From Eledone cirrhosa (Eukaryota): DNA of 64,000 nt. Shown here piece after piece: positions 2,791 through 53,210 of the stretch. Positions within the stretch are counted from its first letter, which is position 1; each line of letters opens with the position of its first letter. The stretch is from the NCBI GenBank assembly GCA_964016885.1, contig OZ024742.1:156364001-156428000 (forward strand). Direction: 5' to 3'. The translations under genes were made by a program, and so were the position numbers. Below the pieces are notes generated by a model. It worked only from the letters and a program-made list of their open reading frames with translations. It had not been told where the DNA came from and ran no database searches.

Positions 2791-3919
2791 CTCCTTTTCT
2801 CTCTCTCGATACGTAAATATTCTCTCTCTCTTTTTCACTCTATATATATATATAAATAGAAGTGGTATTTAATTTGTTGGAAATGCGACAAATATACATT
2901 TTTATAACTGATTTAGAGCACTCAACAGTTTACTGAAGTAAATATTCAATGATATTAAATAAATGGAAACTATACTTATAAAACAATATTTATTTTATTA
3001 TATATATTTCAAGAGCAACCAAGACAACATTGGTACTCTTTCTTCAGATAAAATACAAAGTTTGGTTTATAAATAGAGACATACCCATGAAAATCATACC
3101 TTATCGGTTGGAAATTCACTGGATAGTGGAAATATATTAGGGATTATTAAAACTGATGTGTGAATATGCAAATGAATATGTAAATAACTGAAAAGCAACC
3201 GTTTATTTAAATGACAGTGGAGAAAGAGAGAGAAAGAAAAAGAAATATTACGAGAGAGATAGAGAGAAGAAATTACACAAGAGGATGAATAAAACTCATA
3301 TAACGTAATTTGGGTGAAATATATTCTAATCATATATCTAATGGTACGTGTATTTACGATTAATTAGTTGTTAAATTATTTTCTTATATATTTAGATATA
3401 CGTAGATAGAAAAATAAATAGATAGAAGAATAGATAGAAAAATAAATAAATAAATAAATAAATAAATGAATCAATAAATAGATAAATATATAAATAGATA
3501 AATAAATGAATAGATGGGTATATCGTGTTATAGATAATTGTTTTAATGAGTTTTGAGGGATATTGGTTTTGTATTTAATGTAAGTAAATATTAAGTTAAA
3601 TTAAATTAAGTTAACTGAGTTAATAAGAATATTTATATTTATATATTTTAAAATGGGAAGATACCGAACAAACTCCAGTTTTGTTTATTTATTCGTTAGT
3701 ATGAGACTATTTTGTGAAAATAAGTATAAATGTTGAAAGATATATTTACCCAGAATTAGTTAGTGGTTATAAATCTAATAAAGGATATTGAAAAAATATT
3801 AAAAATTCGGGAAAATTTTGTTTTAAAATAATTTATAACAGATAAGTAATTTTAAAAAAAATAATTTTTAAAAATAGATAACAAATTAAAGAAATAAAAA
3901 ATTAAGAATTAAAAATTAT

Positions 3920-7165: not shown

Positions 7166-7313
<148 letters not shown>

Positions 7314-7319
7314 AATAAA

Positions 7320-7680
7320 ATTTCAGCGATATCGTATTTCGGCTGTGGTCAAAATCAAAGTGAAACGCAATTTTCGAGATATCCGGCAGGCTGTCAATGG
7401 ACTAAAAGAAAACCAGAGCAATTAATATACGTTATAGAGGCCAGACAAAATGAAATCGGCGGTCATGAAGCTATTAGCCACCCGAGCTATGAAAACGAAG
7501 CAAGCTAAACAGGTTAACAAAAGAATTTACCTGGATCTCCTGGAAATTGATAGTATAAACAAGTGGGAGGTTTCTGTGACATCTAAATCAATTATACTGC
7601 CTGCTTTCGTTGTAAGCTTTTGGTGTAACGATCGAACAAGACAGCCATTTCGTCAACATGTATTTTCTTAACAGCCGGCT
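7320..7680 (-). mobile_element. Diverged relative of the 616-bp repeat family, with large hammerhead motif at 7529-7661
   Basis: Collinear by-eye similarity to 29313-29700 and 38483-38835. Minus strand reads ACATG-TTGACGA...GAAA-CCTCC...GGAG-ATC-CAGGT. Confidence 0.72.
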
Positions 7681-7698
7681 GGCGGCTGAGTATTGGTG

Positions 7699-7734
<36 letters not shown>

Positions 7735-13651: not shown

Positions 13652-14588
13652 GGATATATATATATATGTACGTATGGATTCACCGAAGATTTATTATACG
13701 AAATTTCATTTCTCATTATAAAATATGTTTGGTGAATCCATACGTACATATATATATGTGTGCATGTATGTATATATACATACATACTACTGTACTTCTG
13801 TATACATATAGGTATGTACATATACATACTTATATTTCAGTAACAGCCGTACTAAGACTGAGAAATGAAATTTCGTTTCATTTTTTTCCGTTTATCGTTT
13901 TCGGTACCCCGGCCGATTAACTCCCTCGATATGCAAACTAGGCTGCTCAGCCGTTAATATGCATAAGGAAAGTATATACTTTCAGACGTTCAACCATCTG
14001 GCAGGAAGGTACACGTTGCTGACGATAGCTGATAAGCTTGAAACTAGTACATCGTTCCTTTGTCAGTGTTGAACAAATGAGCTACGATGGTTGCTAGACA
14101 CTGTACGGCTTAAGTCGGGATGTTTGTTTACAAACACACCGAGCATTACAATAAATGTTCGGTGAATCCATACCTAGATATATATATGTGTGTGCATCTA
14201 TGTATATATATATACATACTACTGTATGTCTCTATACATATATGTATGTAGGTATACATACATATATTTAAGTAACAGCCGTACTAAGAGTGAGATATTA
14301 AATTTCGTTTCATTTTTTCCGTTTATCGTTTTCGGTACTCCGGCCGATTAACTCACTCGATATGCAGATTAGGCTGCTCAGCCGTTCATATGCATAAGGA
14401 AAGTATATACTTTCAAACTTTCAAGCATCTGGTAGGAAGGTACACGTTGCTGACGATAGCTAATAAGCTTGAAACAAGTCAGTGTTGAACAATGAGCAAC
14501 GATGGTTGCTAGACACTGTACGGCTTAATTCGGGATGTTTGTTTACAAACACACCGAGCATTATAGTAAATGTTCGCTGAATCCATAC

Positions 14589-14649
<61 letters not shown>

Positions 14650-27904: not shown

Positions 27905-28393
27905 TTATATATGTAGGAGGTGAGTTTTATTGTAGTACATTAAAGCAATGCAGATATCGGATAAGAAGCACTCTACAGTTTGTAGGACTGGAGTATACAT
28001 AATATATAAGATCAAAAGATGGTTAAAGGAGTTCCATGTATTTTATTAGGCGCATTTCAAAAACAAACATCATCATGCAATAATATTTGCGTTTTCATCA
28101 GATAAAACAGGAGGACATGATATGAAGGCTAAACAACACTTGGGGATAGTGCAGTTTTAAACACAAGTTTTTGTTAGCCTTCATATCATGTCCTCCTGTT
28201 TTATCTGATGAAAACACAAATATTATTGCATGATGATGTTTGTTTTCGAAATGCGCATAATAAAATACACGGAACTCCTTTAACCATCTTTTGATCTTAT
28301 ATATTATGTATACTCCAGTCCTACAAACTGTAGAGTGCTTCTTATCCGATATCTGCATTGCTTTATTGTACTACAATAAAACTCACCTCCTAC

Positions 28394-29312: not shown

Positions 29313-29320
<8 letters not shown>

Positions 29321-31045
29321 GATCGAGTATCGAAAAATCGGCGCACGAGTTCACGATAAACGAAATTCGATATGAGCGGCAGAGGGCTCAATAATTCAGA
29401 TGAATCAGAGCTATAACTATCGTTAAAATACCGTCACATATAGAACAAGTCTACAATCAACCATACGATTTAAAATCGATAAAGGAAGATTCGGGCCAAA
29501 CAGATAAAAAATATCAATAAAACAATACGTCAATAATTTAAATGAATGTAAAATCATACCCGGACCCACTAGACAGGTGTTAAATCTAGCTTCATGGGTT
29601 TCTGTAAATCCTTAGACTGTACTCTATCAGCTCACATATAAATATAAAAGCCTACTAGAGCAAGTGGAACGGAGGTTTACGTTATCAACGAGTTTTTTCC
29701 TGGCGGCAGAGGAGCCAACTACCAGTGAAAAACGCACATGGCATTAGACAAGGGAGATGACCCCTATATCCGCGAAAACAATTCGAGTGAATGTGGAAAT
29801 ACACATATCGAATTAGAGTGCTCAATAGACATGTTAAAATAAAACAAAAGCTATTCATCACTCAATAGAATCGACAAAAAATGAGCAATAAAATTAACTG
29901 GTGGATAGCTATGTCCAGAGCTAAATATATTAGAAAGATCGAGTATCGAAAAATCGGCGCACGAGTTCACGATAAACGAAATTCGATATGAGCGGCAGAG
30001 GGCTCAATAATTCAGATGAATCAGAGCTATAACTATCGTTAAAATACCGTCACATATAGAACAAGTCTACAATCAACCATACGATTTAAAATCGATAAAG
30101 GAAGATTCGGGCCAAACAGATAAAAAATATCAATAAAACAATACGTCAATAATTTAAATGAATGTAAAATCATACCCGGACCCACTAGACAGGTGTTAAA
30201 TCTAGCTTCATGGGTTTCTGTAAATCCTTAGACTGTACTCTATCAGCTCACATATAAATATAAAAGCCTACTAGAGCAAGTGGAACGGAGGTTTACGTTA
30301 TCAACGAGTTTTTTCCTGTCGGCAGAGGAGCCAACTACCAGTGAAAAACGCACATGGCATTAGACAAGGGAGATGACCCCTATATCCGCGAAAACAATTC
30401 GAGTGAATGTGGAAATACACATATCGAATTAGAGTGCTCAATAGACATGTTAAAATAAAACAAAAGCTATTCATCACTCAATAGAATCGACAAAAAATGA
30501 GCAATAAAATTAACTGGTGGATAGCTATGTCCAGAGCTAAATATATTATAAAGATCGAGTATCGAAAAATCGGCGCACGAGTTCACGATAAACGAAATTC
30601 GATATGAGCGGCAGAGGGCTCAATAATTCAGATGAATCAGAGCTATAACTATCGTTAAAATACCGTCACATATAGAACAAGTCTACAATCAACCATACGA
30701 TTTAAAATCGATAAAGGAAGATTCGGGCCAAACAGATAAAAAATATCAATAAAACAATACGTCAATAATTTAAATGAATGTAAAATCATACCCGGACCCA
30801 CTAGACAGGTGTTAAATCTAGCTTCATGGGTTTCTGTAAATCCTTAGACTGTACTCTATCAGCTCACATATAAATATAAAAGCCTACTAGAGCAAGTGGA
30901 ACGGAGGTTTACGTTATCAACGAGATTTTTCCTGTCGGCAGAGGAGCCAACTACCAGTGAAAAACGCACATGGCATTAGACAAGGGAGATGACCCCTATA
31001 TCCGCGAAAACAATTCGAGTGAATGTGGAAATACACATATCGAAT
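29313..31045 (-). mobile_element. 616-bp tandem repeat, 2.8 near-identical units, one large hammerhead per unit (retrozyme-like family C)
   Basis: GATCGAGTATCG at 29321, 29937 and 30553. HHRs at 29558-29693, 30174-30309 and 30790-30925. Confidence 0.9.
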
Positions 31046-32372: not shown

Positions 32373-35281
32373 CGACGTCCTCCCGTGTAAGAGTTGGCTC
32401 TGGACACTAAGCTCCAAGTGAGATCATAGGTAATATTGTAATCCTTGAGGTCCCTGATGAGGCCCGAAAGTGTTGTGGCGTGACGCCGGGCCGGGTTGCG
32501 GAAGGTATGTCTGTGTTGCTATAGCCGTGTCTTGAAGTCGCATGCGGTTAATCCTATATAATCTTTGTTGGAGCTGTCCGTCCTCACGTTGCACTAGTAG
32601 ATCACGTTACGATATCTGCATCTGTTGTCGAGGGGCCAAATGGATCCATCAGGGCAGTTGCACCTCCTGGTCGGCTCTCCACTGCTATTTAGGTTATTTC
32701 TTCCATAGGGGGTTGAGTTTATTGTTGTTAGAGGAGACGATGTATTGTGCAAAGTTTGGTGTGGTTCTGTAGGATAGTTTCGTGGTATTTTTGTTAATTA
32801 TGTTGTGGTAGCGGTGTTGTAGTGGGAAGTGTTTTTCGATGAGCCTAAAGAAGATTTTCCCAATAGGAGTTGTCACCTCGGCGTTGAGGGGCGGATTGAA
32901 CCATATTACATTACGTGAGCGGCAGTGTCGCCTGCTGGCTCCGCTAATGGAAGCTGGACAGTAGGATATTTCCTCCCGGAAACCACTCCGCTTGAGGGCC
33001 TGGTTGTAATAAGGCGCATGTTCCTCGAATATCTTCTCATTAGCGGACAAACGAGATATGCGGAGGGAGATGTTTTTAACCAGGTTATTGGTGATGTTCC
33101 TAGGATGGTTTGACCTGCGGTGGATGTAGTGCAGATTGTCGTTGGGTTTCCTGTATGGGTAGTACAGATCATTATCGAGGTCAAGATTAACGTCCAGCAA
33201 GTTTACTCGGGTCAGGGACGTTTGTAGGGTTATTTTAAATCCCCAGTCGCGGAATAAGCTGATTAATTGTTTACGGTCTCGTTCTGTACTACTGAGGTTG
33301 TACCCTTTAAGGGTAAGGAGCCCATCATCTCGGTATAATCCACCGCCGAATGCAGGAAATGTATCGGTGTGTTTAACTAGTAGGAATAATCCTATAAGAT
33401 ATGTGACCTCAGCCGAATCCTTCGCGCCCATGCTGACTTCGAAGGGTGAGTCGGGAGCTCTTTTTATCCATTTGGAGTTGTCGAAGAGTAGGACTGTGTT
33501 CCTGGCGTGGAGGATGATGTTTCTTTCCTGGTCGGTGATGGGCGCAAGTGTTTCGGCAAATTCCAAGGCAGCCGTAAGTAGCGGTAAGGTAATTGTAGCA
33601 TGTCAAACTGGATGAATGTTGTGTCTCGTTTGTCCTCCATATTGCTGAACCATGAGATTACTTCCTGGGTGTTGACCCATAGGCTAAGTCTGGCGTGTTG
33701 CTTAACTTTTGGTATAACGCGGTCCAGGATTTTTTTGCTGTTTCTCCCTATGTCAGACTTCGTTGGGTTTATAAGCCTGATAGAAGGTTTACGGTAGAAA
33801 TCGTATTTGTGGTCCTTCAGTGTGAAGTAGGGTGTCCGTGGGTCTAAGGGTTCCGTACGGTCGGCGACCCCGAGGCAGGAGGTAATTTGTTGTCCATCTC
33901 GATTTATGTCCTCGATGCAGGAGTGGTTAGCCTTTTTATAGGTGGAGTTTAGGCTGCTCCTGATAAGTGTGTGGTATCTGTCGGGGTTGACGAAATAGAG
34001 GTTACCAGTTTTATCCGAGTGCTCCATGATGTCATTGGTGTTATCATACTTTGTTAAGTTGCTAATGTTCTTGACCAGTTGGAAAAGGTCATTCTCGAAG
34101 GATGAGAGAATAGGGTTCGGAGGGGGAGATTTGTAGGTATTAAATCCGAATCTCTCCTTAGTACCGATTGTCGAAATATATGTCGTAGAAAAAAGTGCTC
34201 CATCTATGTCTTTTCGCAAAGAGGTCGATTTTTTGCGTGAGCATCCGAAGGTAAAGTTTTTTCGGTGGAATTGGGTTGTTCTTGGTGGAGAAGTCGATGT
34301 TGTGTTTTCGCATGGTGCGGGTGAAATAACTTGTGCTTAGCGGAAAAGTCTGGATAGGGCGTGGTAGGGTCGTAAAGTGCTCTATTACGGGAATAGGAGC
34401 TAGATAACGAAGGAAATATGGTAAGGAACCAGATGGACCATAACGCACCAACGTACTCAATACTTAGGATAGTAGAGTGGGTAATAGGAACGAGTAGGAC
34501 CCCGACGGCTGAGCTCAAGCCGTTTCGACGGCTAATTCTGGACTAAATGAAAATGTTTATCGTCGTATATGAATAGCCGAGCTTCTCAGGGGGTAATTCC
34601 TTATATGGTAAAAGTGATTGTCACAAGGATTGGTCAAAAGTTTGTTGTTGAGACACATAATACTATCATGGCAATTTGTGGAGGGAAGGGGTAGCTGAAC
34701 CTGCCAGTAGAAGAACGGTGGAGAGGGGGTGGAGGAAACCTAGTCGTGCGTTGATAGTGCCAACTACAGCAGGGCAAGAGGTCAAGGAACTGTACTAGAG
34801 AGGGGGAGGAAGTCGAAACAATAAGTAAAACAATATGGGGTAAATATATAGAAGAATACCGAGAATGTTAAAAAACAATTAAATATTTAAAAAAAAAAAA
34901 TTTCTGGTTACTATTCCCTAACGGCAGCCATCAAGTCTCTCACTGCTACTGCTAGACTATAGAGAGTTGACTAGGTGGGACGGAATTATAATGAGACCCT
35001 TCTAAGAGGTAGTAGTAATCAACCGAGTATATCTTACGGTGACGGGTCACCAAGTGGGGGCGCCAAAATACTAAAGAAACTACCACGAAAAAATAAATCA
35101 GAGTCTCGAGACTAATACGAAATAATTTTGACCAAGCCTTGTGACAATCACTTTTATCATATATGGAATTAACCCCTGGGAAGCTGGGCTATTCATATAC
35201 CAGGATAAAAATATTCATTTAGTCCAGAATTAGCCGTCGAAACGGCTTGAGCTCAGCCGTCGGGTTCCTACTCGTTCCTAT
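32373..35281 (-). mobile_element. Naiad-like PLE, frameshifted (coding ~32375-34320), with 5' pLTR ~34483-34640 and inverted copy ~35126-35281
   Basis: YFTLKDHK..F.RKPSIRLINPTKSDIG, FIQFD, PFEVSMGAKDSAEV, GGLYRDDGLL, YRKPND, VIWFNPP, RCNC...VIY...DYIG. Confidence 0.94.
34500..34593 (-). ncRNA. Hammerhead motif in pLTR (C3/A8 mismatch in this copy)
   Basis: CCCC-CTGAGAA-..CGGCTATTC...GAATTAGCCG..-GAAA-CGGCT-TGAGCTC-AGCCG-TC-GGGG. Inverted, more mutated copy at 35173-35264. Confidence 0.78.
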
Positions 35282-35297
35282 ATATATATATAAATAT

Positions 35298-35715
35298 ATA
35301 TACATACTAGTGTACGTCTGTATACATATATGTATGTACGTATACATACTTATATTTAAGTAACAGCCGTACTAAGAGTGAGAAATGAAATTTCGTTTCA
35401 TTTTTTCCGTTTATCGTTTTCGGTACCCTGGGCGATTAACTCACTCGATATGCAAATTAGGCTGCTCAGCCGTTAATATGCATAAGGAAAGTATATACAT
35501 TCAGACGTTCAACCATCTGGCAGGAAGGTATACGTTGCTGACGATAGCTAATACGCTGGTAACTAGCACAGCGTTCCTTTGTCAGTGTTGAACAAATGAG
35601 CAACGATGGTTGTTAGACACTGTACGGCTTAATTCGGGATGTTGGTTTGCAAAAACACCGAGCATTATAATAAATGTTCGGTGAATCCATACGTACATGT
35701 ATATATATGTGTGCA

Positions 35716-35771
<56 letters not shown>

Positions 35772-36156
35772 CTACAGTACGTCTGTATACATATATGTAT
35801 GTTCGTATACATACGTGTAGTTAAGTAACAGCCGTACTAAGATTTAGAAATGAAATTTCGTTTCATTTTTTCCGTTTATCGTTTACGGTACCCCGGCCGA
35901 TTAACTCATTTGATATGCAAATTAGGCTGGTCAGCCGTTAATATGCATAAGGAAAGTATATACTTTCAGACGTTCAACCATCTGTCTGGAAGGTATGCGT
36001 TGCTAACGATAGCTAATAAGCTTGAAACTAGAACAGCGTTCATTTGTCAGTGTTGAACAAATGAGGAACGATGGTTGCTAGACACTGTTCGGCTTAATCC
36101 GGGTTGTTTGTTTACAAACACACCGAGCATTATAATAAATGTTCGTAAATCCATAC

Positions 36157-36193
<37 letters not shown>

Positions 36194-36197
36194 CATG

Positions 36198-36233
<36 letters not shown>

Positions 36234-36747
36234 CTACTGTACGTCTGTATACATATATGAATGTACGTATACATACGTATATTTAAGTAAAAGCCTTACT
36301 AACAGTGGCAAATGAAATTTCGTTTCATTTTTTTCCGTTTATCGTTTTCGGTACCCCGGCCGATTAACTCACTCGATATGCATATTAGGCTGCTCAGCCG
36401 TTAATATGCATAAGGAAAGTATATACTTTCAGACGTTCAACCATCTGGCAGGAAGGTATAAGTTGCTGACGATAGCTAATAAGCTTGAAACTAGTGCAGC
36501 ATTCCTTTGTCAGTGTTGAACAAATGAGCAACGATGGTTGCTAGACACTGTACGGCTTAATTCGGGATGTTTGTTTACAAACACACCGAGCATTATAATA
36601 AATGTTCGGTGAATTCATACGTACATATACATATATATGTGTGCATGTATGTATATATATATATACATGCTACTGTACGTCTGTATACATATATACATCT
36701 ACGTATACATCCTTATATTTAAGTAACAGCCGTACTAAGAGTGAGAA
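35298..36747 (+). mobile_element. Family B tandem array, about 3 units (465/462/436 bp), hammerheads each point-mutated
   Basis: Unit marker at 35361, 35826, 36288 and 36724. Cores near 35538 (GTAA for GAAA), 36003 (CTAACGA) and 36466 (GTG triplet). Confidence 0.9.
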
Positions 36748-38353: not shown

Positions 38354-38900
<547 letters not shown>

Positions 38901-39135
38901 AAATTACCCATATTTTTGCAAAAGATTCAGTATGTGTATATCATACAAACATTTGCATAGATAGCACAAATCGAATAAGCACTCAACCAAGTAGTTTTAA
39001 AAAATAAAATTATGAAATTAATCTCTCAATAGAATTATTAACGGGATTGTGTAACCAACTTTGCGATTGACGCAGAGCTTAGTAAACGCCCATGCGTCAG
39101 TCACACACACACATATATATATATATAGAGATATA

Positions 39136-46137: not shown

Positions 46138-46660
46138 CCTACATTTAAATAATACACATAGGGATACAAGTATAGTCCGACCGTATGTCATTGTGGTTCA
46201 ATGGCAAGTTAATAAATTAACAAGCCAGAACGTATAAAATCAGGGGAAAGCAAATAAAGAAAAAAAATGAAAATAAATTTCCAAAAATTCCCTGTACTTA
46301 CTATATGTGCCTTTACCGCGATTTCAGATCCCAAACAAATAGATAATCCAAGCGGAGTTCCACTGAATAAGAGATCCTCGTCAGAAGGCTTTTCGCCCTC
46401 GGAGAATATAAAACTCCCGAGTTCAAATTACAAACTGGCGCCATACAAAACTGCCCCAGAATGAGAGCAAATGAATGATGAAACAATTTTGTCTAGTACC
46501 GTGTGCAAAGACTGAAAGCAAGATGGACAGTTCAATCTCTTGCTACTAAAAATAGCAGCCGTTCAAATGACCAAAGATTTCTCTAAAGGGGCATATATAG
46601 TAAGTAGAGTGAATTTGTTGATATTAATTAACATTTTTTTTCTTTATTTGTTTTCCCTTG

Positions 46661-47742: not shown

Positions 47743-48145
47743 TATACATACAGGTACACATATATATATGTACGTATCAGTTTAGCGAACGTTTATTATA
47801 ACGCCCGCTTTGTCCGTTTGTAAACAAGCGAACAGCCTGATTTATGCCATACGATGTTAAGGCAACCACGTCACCTTTTTGTTCAACACTGACACAGGAA
47901 CGATGTACTAGTTTCAAGCTTGTGAGCTATCATCAGCACCGTATACCCTTCTGCCAGATAGTTGAACGTTCGAAAGTATACACTTTCCTTATGAAAATTA
48001 ACGGCTGAGCAGCCTAATTTGCATATCGAGTGAGTTCAGTCGGCCAGGCGTACCGACAACGATAAGTTGTAATATAATGAAACGAAATTTCATTTCTCAC
48101 TCTTAGTACGGCACTTACTTAAATGTAAGTATGTATGTATACGTA
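47648..48145 (-). mobile_element. Diverged family B unit with intact hammerhead at 47900-47942
   Basis: Minus strand reads ACGGTG-CTGATGA-TAGC-TCACAA-GCTT-GAAA-CTAG-TA-CATCGT. Confidence 0.9.
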
Positions 48146-49898: not shown

Positions 49899-50607
49899 TA
49901 AAAGGGGTTTGATTGGTGTTATGGACTCTACCAACCAAATATTCAAGAACAAAGAGTAAAGAGAGTAAAGAGCAAAAGCAGGGGACAATAAGTCTAATTT
50001 TTTTTTTTGGGGGGGGGGTCCTTGTTTACAAGCTGTGGTCATATTCGTTCCCGGGAGTCGAGCGGTTAGTGGAGCCATAGATGGGGTGGCATCGAAAGTA
50101 GGGTGCAGAGCACAAAGCACAGACACGATAGGTATTCCTTTGACCAGACCATGAGAAGTAGTAAAACCAGGAGATCATTCTCAAGATCTCAACAGAGACT
50201 ACCAACAAGGAATGTGGAAACAAAACGTAGAATAACCAGATCACTCTCAAGATCTCAACAGAGATTGCCCACAAGAAACTGGACGAAAAAACGATCTAAA
50301 CCTGAAAGCAAACCTAGGTCATTTTCCCAGATTGTTAAAAATAATGCTAACAGGAAGAAAAATAATATACAGAATACCAAAAATAGGACAAAATACATAA
50401 CGAAACCAAATATAATATCACGACCAAAAGTTCATCAACGAACACCAACAGGAATATAAATCCTGAACAGAGAAAATTTCATTTTTTAACGTCAGGACAA
50501 CAAAAACCGGAAACAGAAAAACTCCAGGAGGAAACATACCCAAAACAGCTGTACACGTAGATCCTAAAATAATTAATTTATCTAAAAGAGATCTTGACAA
50601 TGATGAA

Positions 50608-52797
50608 ATGCAAATTCTGTCAAAAGGACTGAAATTCACACCGACTCCAACAATCAACCACCAAGAACTGAAGGAGGATACCCAAGAATTCTGTCGAAAA
50701 TTACGTCTTGTAGAATTCTTCGCTGATAAAAATAATGAGAGTGATGAATCACTAGTAAAGAATCAATCAAATTTCACTCCGCCAAAAGGAAGAAATATCT
50801 ATCTCGACCAATACATTGACATCCTGTCTAAATTTCCTCTTAGACATAATACTAATGTTAGGCCAAACATTAACAAATCAGAAATATTTGCACTTAAACG
50901 TATACAAAATGATAAAACAATAATAATTAAACAAGCAGATAAAGGGGGTGCAGTTGTTATAATGGATACTGAATACTACAAGGATTTGGTTGAGGAACAA
51001 CTGAAAGACACAACATTCTATCATGAAATACCGTCAAATATAGACCACAACATCATGAAGAAGATCAACAACCTGGCTTCAAAATACCACAACTCATTTA
51101 CTGATAAGGAAAGAGACTACATCACCAATTCTGAGCCGAAACCCAGCAACCTGTATGGCCTACCGAAAGTTCACAAGTCAAAAGAAATACAACTGGCAGT
51201 AAGAGAACAAAACAGTGAGTACATTAAATTATTACACCCAAAAGACTTAAAACTTAGACCTATTATAGCTGGTCCAACACGCCCCACTCACCGTCTAAGC
51301 AATTTTGTTGACATTATTTTGAAACCACTATGTATTCACATACCCAGTTTCATCCGGGATGATATCGACTTCCTGTCCCATCTTCCCAAAACCACGGAAA
51401 CGAATTCACTTCTACTCAGTTTTGATGTGGTAAGCCTTTACACCAACATTACACATGATTTAGGAATAAAGGCGGTTAAATACTGGATGGAAAAACACAG
51501 AGAAGTGATTCCCATTAGATTCACAGCGCCATTTATATTAGACGCAGTTAAACTTATTCTGGAAAACAACACTTTCTTCTTCAATGGAAAGAATTACATC
51601 CAAATTAGAGGCACAGCGATGGGAACGAAGTTTGCTCCCGTTTACGCGAACTCTGTAATGGGATACTTAGAACAACAACTCTACCAAGAAATAGAGGAAA
51701 ACTATAGTACTGACTTTAGAAAGTACATTGAAAAATCTTGGAAGAGATACCTTGACGAATGTTTCATCATCTGGACAGAATCTCTAGATACTCTGGATGA
51801 GTTCAATATCCTCCTGAATAACCTACACCCATCTCTCCAATTCACAAAAGAGATGAGTAGGACCAAATTACCATTCCTAGATATAATGATAATCAAAAAC
51901 GACATCACCATTACCACGGATATATATTATAAACACACAGACACCCATCAATATCTGAATTTTAAGTCGTGCCATCCACCTCATACAAAACGCAACATCC
52001 CATACTGCCTAGCCAGAATAATTTGTACCATTGTAGAAGATACGAATACCAGGTACAAACGCCTAACAGAACTAAGAGAATTTTTGCTCAAACAAAAATA
52101 CCCATCTCTACTTATAGAAAATGGCATACAGCGGGCTATAAAAATACCTATACAACAACTTAGAACAACCCACGGAAGAAGAAACCAAGAACTGGTCATA
52201 CCATTTATAATGACACACAACCCATGTCACCATAATATATTCAACACTGCCAAAGCAAACCTACCGATCATTGCTCAAAGTAATGAATTAAAAGGAGGCT
52301 TAATCACAGATCGATCTTTGACTCTTAGTAAAAGACAGCCAAAAAAGTTGAAGCAATTGCTAACAAAAGCAAAGTTTGACCTTAACAACAAAGACCAATC
52401 ATTCACTGTATCTAAATGCAATGATAATCGATGCGGCACATGTCAATCCATAAACGCCGGTCAATATATGAAAACAAAAACTGGAAAAATATTCCCAAAT
52501 GCAAATATGAACTGCAAAAGCAGAAATCTAATTTACTGCATTAAATGCCCGAATTGTGAAGAACTATATGTCGGTCAAACTGGAAATGCACTATCGGAAC
52601 GTGCACGGGTACACTGTCAACAAATAAGAGACCCAAATGTCCGTCAGATACCCCTAAGCGGCCACCTGGCAACATGTGGTCAGGGAATATTAAAAATATT
52701 CCCATTCTACAAATTACACAGCCCAAGTGAAATCAAGAGACAAATCAAAGAAAAGAATTTTATTGATGAATTCAAACCCAAGCTAAATGAACAATAA
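50608..52797 (+). CDS. PLE reverse transcriptase + GIY-YIG endonuclease (729 aa, uninterrupted; YLDE instead of YLDD)
   Basis: LSKGLKFTP, IKQADKGG, LYGLPKVHK, RPIIAG, FDVVSLYTNI, GTAMGT..AP.YAN, RYLDE, LPFLD, CNDNRCGTC, LIYCIKC...LYVGQT. Confidence 0.95.
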   Translation: MQILSKGLKFTPTPTINHQELKEDTQEFCRKLRLVEFFADKNNESDESLVKNQSNFTPPKGRNIYLDQYIDILSKFPLRHNTNVRPNINKSEIFALKRIQNDKTIIIKQADKGGAVVIMDTEYYKDLVEEQLKDTTFYHEIPSNIDHNIMKKINNLASKYHNSFTDKERDYITNSEPKPSNLYGLPKVHKSKEIQLAVREQNSEYIKLLHPKDLKLRPIIAGPTRPTHRLSNFVDIILKPLCIHIPSFIRDDIDFLSHLPKTTETNSLLLSFDVVSLYTNITHDLGIKAVKYWMEKHREVIPIRFTAPFILDAVKLILENNTFFFNGKNYIQIRGTAMGTKFAPVYANSVMGYLEQQLYQEIEENYSTDFRKYIEKSWKRYLDECFIIWTESLDTLDEFNILLNNLHPSLQFTKEMSRTKLPFLDIMIIKNDITITTDIYYKHTDTHQYLNFKSCHPPHTKRNIPYCLARIICTIVEDTNTRYKRLTELREFLLKQKYPSLLIENGIQRAIKIPIQQLRTTHGRRNQELVIPFIMTHNPCHHNIFNTAKANLPIIAQSNELKGGLITDRSLTLSKRQPKKLKQLLTKAKFDLNNKDQSFTVSKCNDNRCGTCQSINAGQYMKTKTGKIFPNANMNCKSRNLIYCIKCPNCEELYVGQTGNALSERARVHCQQIRDPNVRQIPLSGHLATCGQGILKIFPFYKLHSPSEIKRQIKEKNFIDEFKPKLNEQ

Positions 52798-53171: not shown

Positions 53172-53210
53172 TGAACCTGAAGATTGCGAAAGCATGAACG
53201 TACTTGTTCA
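53172..53210 (+). ncRNA. Minimal hammerhead motif in 3' pLTR, one core substitution
   Basis: TGAAC-CTGAAGA-T-TGC-GAAA-GCA-T-GAAC-GTAC-TT-GTTCA. GAAC in place of GAAA; helix I is perfect. Confidence 0.72.

Follow-up and report, generated by a model that had tools for sequence, protein, structure and literature searches.

The animal non-LTR retrozymes, as described in two reports (PMC7229834; bioRxiv 2026.07.22.740005), are non-coding, low-GC units that occur in tandem or solo, carry one type I hammerhead each, fold well as monomers and co-occur with Penelope-like elements. Hammerheads are also known from the terminal repeats of Penelope-like elements themselves, and those set out in PMC4209133 are of type I, with a 5-bp helix I, a longer helix II and an extra nucleotide after A9; U3-A8 occurs among them in Schistosoma Cercyon, and a large helix III in fungal and protist elements. 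For the Hydra clade of Penelope elements, PMC8557442 reports (TA)n insertion, 5' truncation, partial tandems and hammerheads, and gives DKT and CxCX5C as marks of the clade. Work on natural core variants has described U3-A8 covariation and pseudoknots in place of loop-loop contacts (PMC3088659), and one saltern variant, which carries an insertion, is listed as having a U3/G8 core (PMC7151607). Traits of each of these systems recur in repeat families of Eledone cirrhosa, for which a 64,000-nucleotide stretch of one contig, hereafter the window, was the point of departure. What appears new here is a long-armed hammerhead fold in seven diverged families of ~600-bp units; retrozymes, their Penelope origin, U3-A8 and pseudoknots have already been published. 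The literature covered lies largely outside subscription journals, and its accessible parts hold no description of the long-armed architecture or of a link between retrozymes and the Hydra clade, although published Hydra-clade structures may show similar arms.

The window belongs to a microsatellite-rich genome of 3.0 Gb and is itself dense in fragments of Penelope-like elements. A sequence-only reading of it had picked out two loci, at 7.5 and 38.7 kb, as diverged relatives of a 616-bp unit (family C) that keep its hammerhead. By sequence comparison, these loci (A and B) are recognizable as decayed, 5'-truncated members of two ~600-bp repeat families, both abundant and both akin to the 616-bp unit (Table 1). 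First-look candidates in the genome number 699 for A, 1526 for B and 1306 for C, which marks all three as high-copy families. The motifs quoted in that reading are all present, on the minus strand, and the core spacing does match among A, B and C (helix II arm 75, 77 and 79 nt; helix III arm 35, 36 and 34 nt), but the B copy runs past its proposed end at 38835 to 39045. The expected alignment between the loci is significant, as A and B share 68% identity (blastn E 1e-18), and the C units are found, at E 3.9e-7 to 8e-6, by a covariance model trained on A/B sister copies alone (30 A and B sister copies, with the window copies excluded). The faint likeness to the 616-bp unit stood only in part: single A or B copies gave no blastn match to C, but the majorities of their families match it along the unit and beyond chance (E 1e-10 to 1e-16; ~52% identity).

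Table 1. Hammerhead units and associated features in the window (coordinates counted from its first nucleotide)
Feature	Position	Strand	Description
Family A copy	7313..7700	-	388 of ~615 bp, 5'-truncated; 91% identity to family majority; microsatellite runs on both sides
Family A hammerhead, decayed type I	7529..7661	-	U3·G8 core; U3 7656, G12 7574, C17 7534
Family C array	29314..31045	-	2.8 head-to-tail 616-bp units
C unit 1 hammerhead	29558..29693	-	U3-A8; C17 29563; 14/14 pairs; equals the minimum-energy fold, intact
C unit 2 hammerhead	30174..30309	-	C17 30179; 14/14 pairs; intact fold
C unit 3 hammerhead	30790..30925	-	C17 30795; 13/14 pairs
Family B copy	38484..39045	-	near full unit (~597 bp); 3' end at (TA)n; 94% identity to family majority
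TTGAGYRCT motif of B copy	38554..38562	-	~80 bases upstream of 3' end; candidate helper-enzyme signal
Family B hammerhead, decayed type I	38694..38829	-	U3-A8 core; U3 38824, G12 38740, C17 38699

The A and B copies of the window are probably dead. Both of their hammerheads keep 11 of 14 fixed pairs, the A copy is without a hammerhead fold, and in shuffle-control folding the two score worse than shuffles (z +1.66 for A, +1.00 for B). The family C array is young, its sister copies being 99.9% identical to the majority. Hammerhead folds are obtained for C and for two sister copies (z -2.0, -1.9 and -1.8 versus shuffles). The probable death of the window copies, along with the family-wide U3·G8 of A and the TA-targeted, non-autonomous behaviour described below, had no place in the sequence-only reading.

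Four further families were added to A, B and C. Family D was found by running a profile over evenly spaced stretches of the genome that total 400 kb. A pattern search with no requirement for helix II pairing returned 24 matches against 1 in the control, and families E, F and G were grown from three of these, picked by eye; because of that choice, all 24 were then scored (see below). The majority of family G represents 10 diverged copies and is weak. Identity among the seven families is 42-75%, with the family A unit beginning slightly earlier in the identity table and tree than in the pair scoring. Seven is a lower bound, since the covariance model was applied to samples rather than genome-wide; in the 400 kb of evenly spaced samples it found 1 truncated copy and the whole-unit profile 3. 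A canonical-core pattern search was also tried as a source of relatives and set aside, its 20 matches falling mostly in one LINE coding stretch, with 2 relatives by profile. The copies with C3-G8 from the 24-match search are mainly minority variants within the U3·G8 families.

Read 5' to 3' on the minus strand, A, B and C all present helix I, UUGAYRA, an arm of 75-79 nt, GAAA, an arm of 34-36 nt, NUC and the helix I partner. The ordered core of a type I hammerhead, YUGANRA...GAAA...NUH with helix I open, is found in 7/7 family majorities, and UGA, A9, GAAA and GUC are invariant among them, as is a GUUC inside the helix II arm. The 3-8 pair is always kept, whether as U-A (B, C, D), U·G (A, E, F) or C-G (G). 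Across the families the helix II arm measures 75-87 nt, and helix III is stable, with arms of 9 to 81 nt. Every family has one additional nucleotide after A9 and an A preceding G12, in all seven an extra A·A or C·A opposition sits where helix II joins the core, and in none of the seven does G10.1-C11.1 lie directly beside A9 and G12. The first helix II pair is G-C in five families, G·U in B and A·C in A (28/30 copies). Position numbering and the role of G12 are those generally accepted for hammerheads. Minimum-energy folds of the A-D majorities give the complete three-way junction unprompted, and those of E-G parts of it only. As a type I hammerhead, the fold is atypical. A candidate tertiary contact between helices I and II is a pseudoknot of a leader GARC with the GUUC of the helix II arm, which would span 3-7 bp (7 in E, 6 in F) and is not significant (permutation p=0.17). 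An Rfam scan of the window found no hammerhead among 122 matches at E up to 1, nearly all of them to microsatellite-driven miRNA models; as the fold is missed by Rfam here, similar elements may be undercounted elsewhere.

Pairing was scored across the seven family majorities at fixed offsets from the core, a procedure that leaves no alignment freedom, and 96 of the 98 fixed-offset pairs are intact. Over the first five pairs of helix II, 34/35 cells are paired (p=0.0012 when partners are permuted among families), helix II controls that were slid out of register reach 9-18/35, and none of 13,582 variation-matched runs of a tree-based neutral simulation attained 34. The second pair of this helix is U-A, C-G, G-C or A-U, and four pair types occur at two positions. 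In all 24 unselected pattern matches, 90/120 cells are paired compared with 32-58/120 when slid. A model-fitted alignment, which leans towards the model, contains 16 pairs changed on both sides (0/500 shuffles), and even within family A an A-U pair held by 18/30 copies switches to U-A in 7/30. Helix I is fully paired and scarcely variable (p=0.29), with a single true double change, found in C, where C-G replaces U-A; helix III lies at the border of significance (p=0.057). The covariation at the base of helix II is real, and the fold is almost certainly under selection at the level of the family.

This result reaches by another route the conclusion of the sequence-only reading, which had taken covariation in helices I and II at three loci for long-term selection on the fold of an old, diversified family. 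The conclusion holds through seven families, but not from three loci, and with families D-G included, covariation is upheld at the base of helix II but not in helix I. Families A, B and C alone lack power because there are only six possible pairings, and a swapped pairing scores the same as the true one (41 vs 41). Moreover, the differences between A and B in helix I and the triplet are mostly decay of single copies. The ACATG/CAGGT offered as helix I of A contains an A·G mismatch, and ACATG is present in 1/30 A copies; the ACTTG taken as helix I of B is found in only 4/30 B copies, where the majority is ACCTG. In both families the majority is ACCTG/CAGGT (23/30 A, 24/30 B). Similarly, the ATC triplet of A, which breaks the pair beside the cleavage triplet, occurs in 4/30 A copies, and the majority is GTC (25/30 A copies, 28/30 B copies). 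A general caution follows, in that differences between single decayed repeat copies can mimic covariation.

The units are ~550-650 bp long. Five A, B and D units have a GC content of 0.34-0.40 and, as unit-length RNAs, fold better than shuffles with z of -2.1 to -6.5; C does so with z -3.8. Family E is left out of the circular folds. No ORF of at least 100 aa was found over the window units, and coding similarity between the units and the window Penelope proteins reached E 0.064 at best; a coding origin from those proteins was rejected. The families thereby show the features by which non-LTR retrozymes are recognized, namely GC below 45%, non-coding sequence and a strongly folded monomer, and in C also tandem hammerhead units. 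Downstream of the cut site, the sequence TATATA is found within 150-420 nt and most often at 210-250; this holds for 29/30 A, 30/30 B, 11/11 C, 13/13 E, 11/13 F and 4/5 G copies scored, and family D (1/13 anchored) was left out of this count. Tandem arrays occur in C, and A, B, D and E are mostly solo or partial tandem copies. Inserts exceed one unit in 14/30 A and 10/30 B copies, a count to be read with the fact that the hammerhead was the query for all copies, so that crossing of the cut site was selected for. The 5' ends are variable and adjoin TA runs in 20/30 A and 23/30 B. A fixed 3' end, 5' truncation, partial tandems and microsatellite targets are traits of non-autonomous Penelope-like elements, and by these sequence features the families are very likely non-autonomous Penelope-type retroelements.

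The best explanation, and a moderately likely one, is that the families share a conserved long-armed type I hammerhead fold and are propagated, as retrozymes, by a reverse transcriptase of Penelope type. Tandem units would be transcribed from the minus strand, and each hammerhead would fold alone, as its helix III is stable, and cut after GUC; the ~600-nt monomer would then circularize. A (TA)n target would be nicked by a Penelope-like enzyme, for which the Hydra clade is the most likely source, and copying would start 210-250 nt beyond the cut, at a fixed site, much as PMC11167929 describes Penelope-type insertion, with reverse transcription beginning internally at a fixed site. Copying would pass the cut site and continue round, leaving partial and multiple units. 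Selection on the fold would act on the few source copies of each round, and inserted copies, including the A and B loci, would then decay. Inserts of more than one unit that span the cut site require a circular or an uncleaved multimeric template, and their sequence fits either. Cleavage is probably active in family C at least. The explanation is weakened by departures in the core, namely the extra opposition (7/7), U3·G8 in three families and the A·C start of helix II in A.

The latter two departures also speak for another reading, by which selection maintains a fold that cuts weakly or no longer cuts; the reverse transcriptase would use the structure as a handle, and uncleaved tandem transcripts would be the source of the copies. 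Families A, E and F have U3·G8, and A has A·C at the helix II base as well, yet they number hundreds of copies; a young Hydra-type element of the window has a C3·A8 mismatch in 16/16 copies. A Penelope enzyme used uncleaved RNA in vitro, and insertion there had no need for cleavage (PMC11167929), and in bioRxiv 2026.07.22.740005, 8/9 Xenopus retrozymes failed to cleave. On the other hand, UGA, A9, GAAA and GUC are invariant at 42-75% identity and position 3 is always paired with 8, which is the pattern that catalysis demands, and U3-A8 is reported to be active (PMC3088659). A role purely as a handle is on this evidence somewhat improbable.

If the families are indeed retrozymes copied by a Penelope-type enzyme, the identity of that helper becomes the next matter. 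A motif, TTGAGYRCT, lies ~75-90 nt upstream of the 3' end in 6/7 families (78/121 copies versus 12/361 random TA flanks), and it is eroded in the window A copy. It also occurs upstream of the TA end in three families of Hydra type. The match is exact in the autonomous family at 34.5 kb and in the element that ends near 2.9 kb, and 8/9 in a third family (L030, one mismatch), whose instance was spotted by eye. The ORFs of these elements carry DKT or CxCX5C. An automated count found the motif in 0/6 TA-ended Hydra-type rows, where the 3' regions are long or interrupted by internal TA runs, so that the true Hydra-type ends were not reached. The link to Hydra is one 9-base motif, noticed post hoc; in the fetched loci there was no autonomous element bearing the long-armed hammerhead, and no alignable homology between the units and autonomous Penelope termini. 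The odds of a Hydra-type Penelope enzyme as the helper may be put at about even. In families A-F, TTGAGNRCT is present twice per unit, ~260-335 bases before and 135-170 after the cut site, the upstream copy being followed by a conserved ATTCG-like word; the two motifs show no mutual pairing in the predicted C circle.

The same life cycle could conceivably run on a helper of the Neptune/Nematis type. Penelope elements of that kind, including a young 777-aa family, likewise end in (TA)n, and at one locus (L190) a family F unit is fused, without a TA run and in the manner of a template switch, to the 3' untranslated region of such an element. This junction, however, is found at 1/20 loci and could be a deletion between adjacent insertions, and the shared 3' motif is absent (0/28) from Neptune/Nematis-type ends, which come from few families only. 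A helper of this type is unlikely. The junction at L190 lies on the minus strand ~330 bases upstream of the hammerhead and may be a template-switch chimera; as an autonomous partner the locus was rejected, since its arrangement is not reproduced in 19 sister loci. The young Penelope family, seen at L243 and related places, has many 777-aa open frames, and a pattern search of its short 3' end found no hammerhead core.

Spread of the units as DNA satellites that multiply by slippage or unequal crossover, their hammerhead being left over from an ancestral element, would account for the long C arrays, and array-specific variants in all sampled units fit local amplification as well as they fit rolling-circle copying. 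Most copies are nevertheless dispersed, single and 5'-truncated, with one common 3' end in (TA)n, which is a signature of retrotransposition, and the satellite route is very unlikely. In one C array (C19; L065 and L069), four variants are present in 4/4 sampled C units and absent from other arrays. Common ancestry with neutral drift and no selection on RNA structure, true as it is of the two window copies themselves and in keeping with the non-significant helix I taken alone, is contradicted by the helix II tests, the invariant core and the A-D majority folds, and deserves hardly any credence.

Other hammerhead-like sites occur in the window. One, at 34499-34594 (-), lies in the terminal repeat of the young Hydra-type Penelope family at 34.5 kb, which has 2270 first-look candidates; besides the C3·A8 mismatch, this site shows a stable helix III and a helix II arm that is likewise long. 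Type I candidates with canonical cores are found at 2994-3052 (-), 28200-28264 (+), 28042-28106 (-) and 46309-46389 (-), the two at 28 kb forming an inverted pair, and those at 3.0 and 28.2 kb are followed by a TWGAGTGCT motif and then (TA)n. A 776-aa Penelope-like ORF at 50467-52797 (+), with RT and GIY-YIG domains and a CX4CxxC linker, has a minimal hammerhead-like core in its 3' region at ~53177-53200. A separate tandem family of 431-465 bp with TA-rich ends occupies 13714-14633, 35279-36665 and 47813-48036, and contains a compact hammerhead-like core at 47936 (-).

Which enzyme moves animal retrozymes, and whether hammerhead cutting is needed for it, are the questions that these families address. 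In this genome, seven or more diverged families bring together a fixed start point, a motif that may serve for recognition, a clade that may supply the helper, and core variants in a natural series. A bolder proposal, speculative and rather doubtful as a whole, is that they represent an active, undescribed hammerhead subtype, with a long helix II arm that a leader pseudoknot locks, an extra purine-rich core pair and catalysis tolerant of U3·G8, on ~600-nt circular retrozymes mobilized in trans by Penelope enzymes of the Hydra clade through the 9-base signal. If true, the lineage would record the full path through C-G, U·G and U-A, and both the enzyme and its recognition site would be named for an animal retrozyme.

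Compared with known systems, the units differ from each of their closest relatives. Non-LTR retrozymes measure 170-400 nt in PMC7229834 and 51-972 bp in bioRxiv 2026.07.22.740005, and their motifs are described there as compact and canonical, whereas the units here measure 550-650 bp, with a helix II arm of 75-87 nt, a long helix III, mostly U3 cores, TA targeting and a fixed 3' end. The metazoan hammerheads of Penelope terminal repeats are, in PMC4209133, minimal, without helix III, and act as dimers; the fold described here has a stable helix III and a further A before G12, and its units carry no ORF. Unlike Hydra-clade elements, the units encode nothing and have no alignable terminal homology with them. 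Finally, in contrast to the core variants published in the accessible literature, C-G, U·G and U-A occur here within one lineage, and U·G is fixed in three high-copy families.
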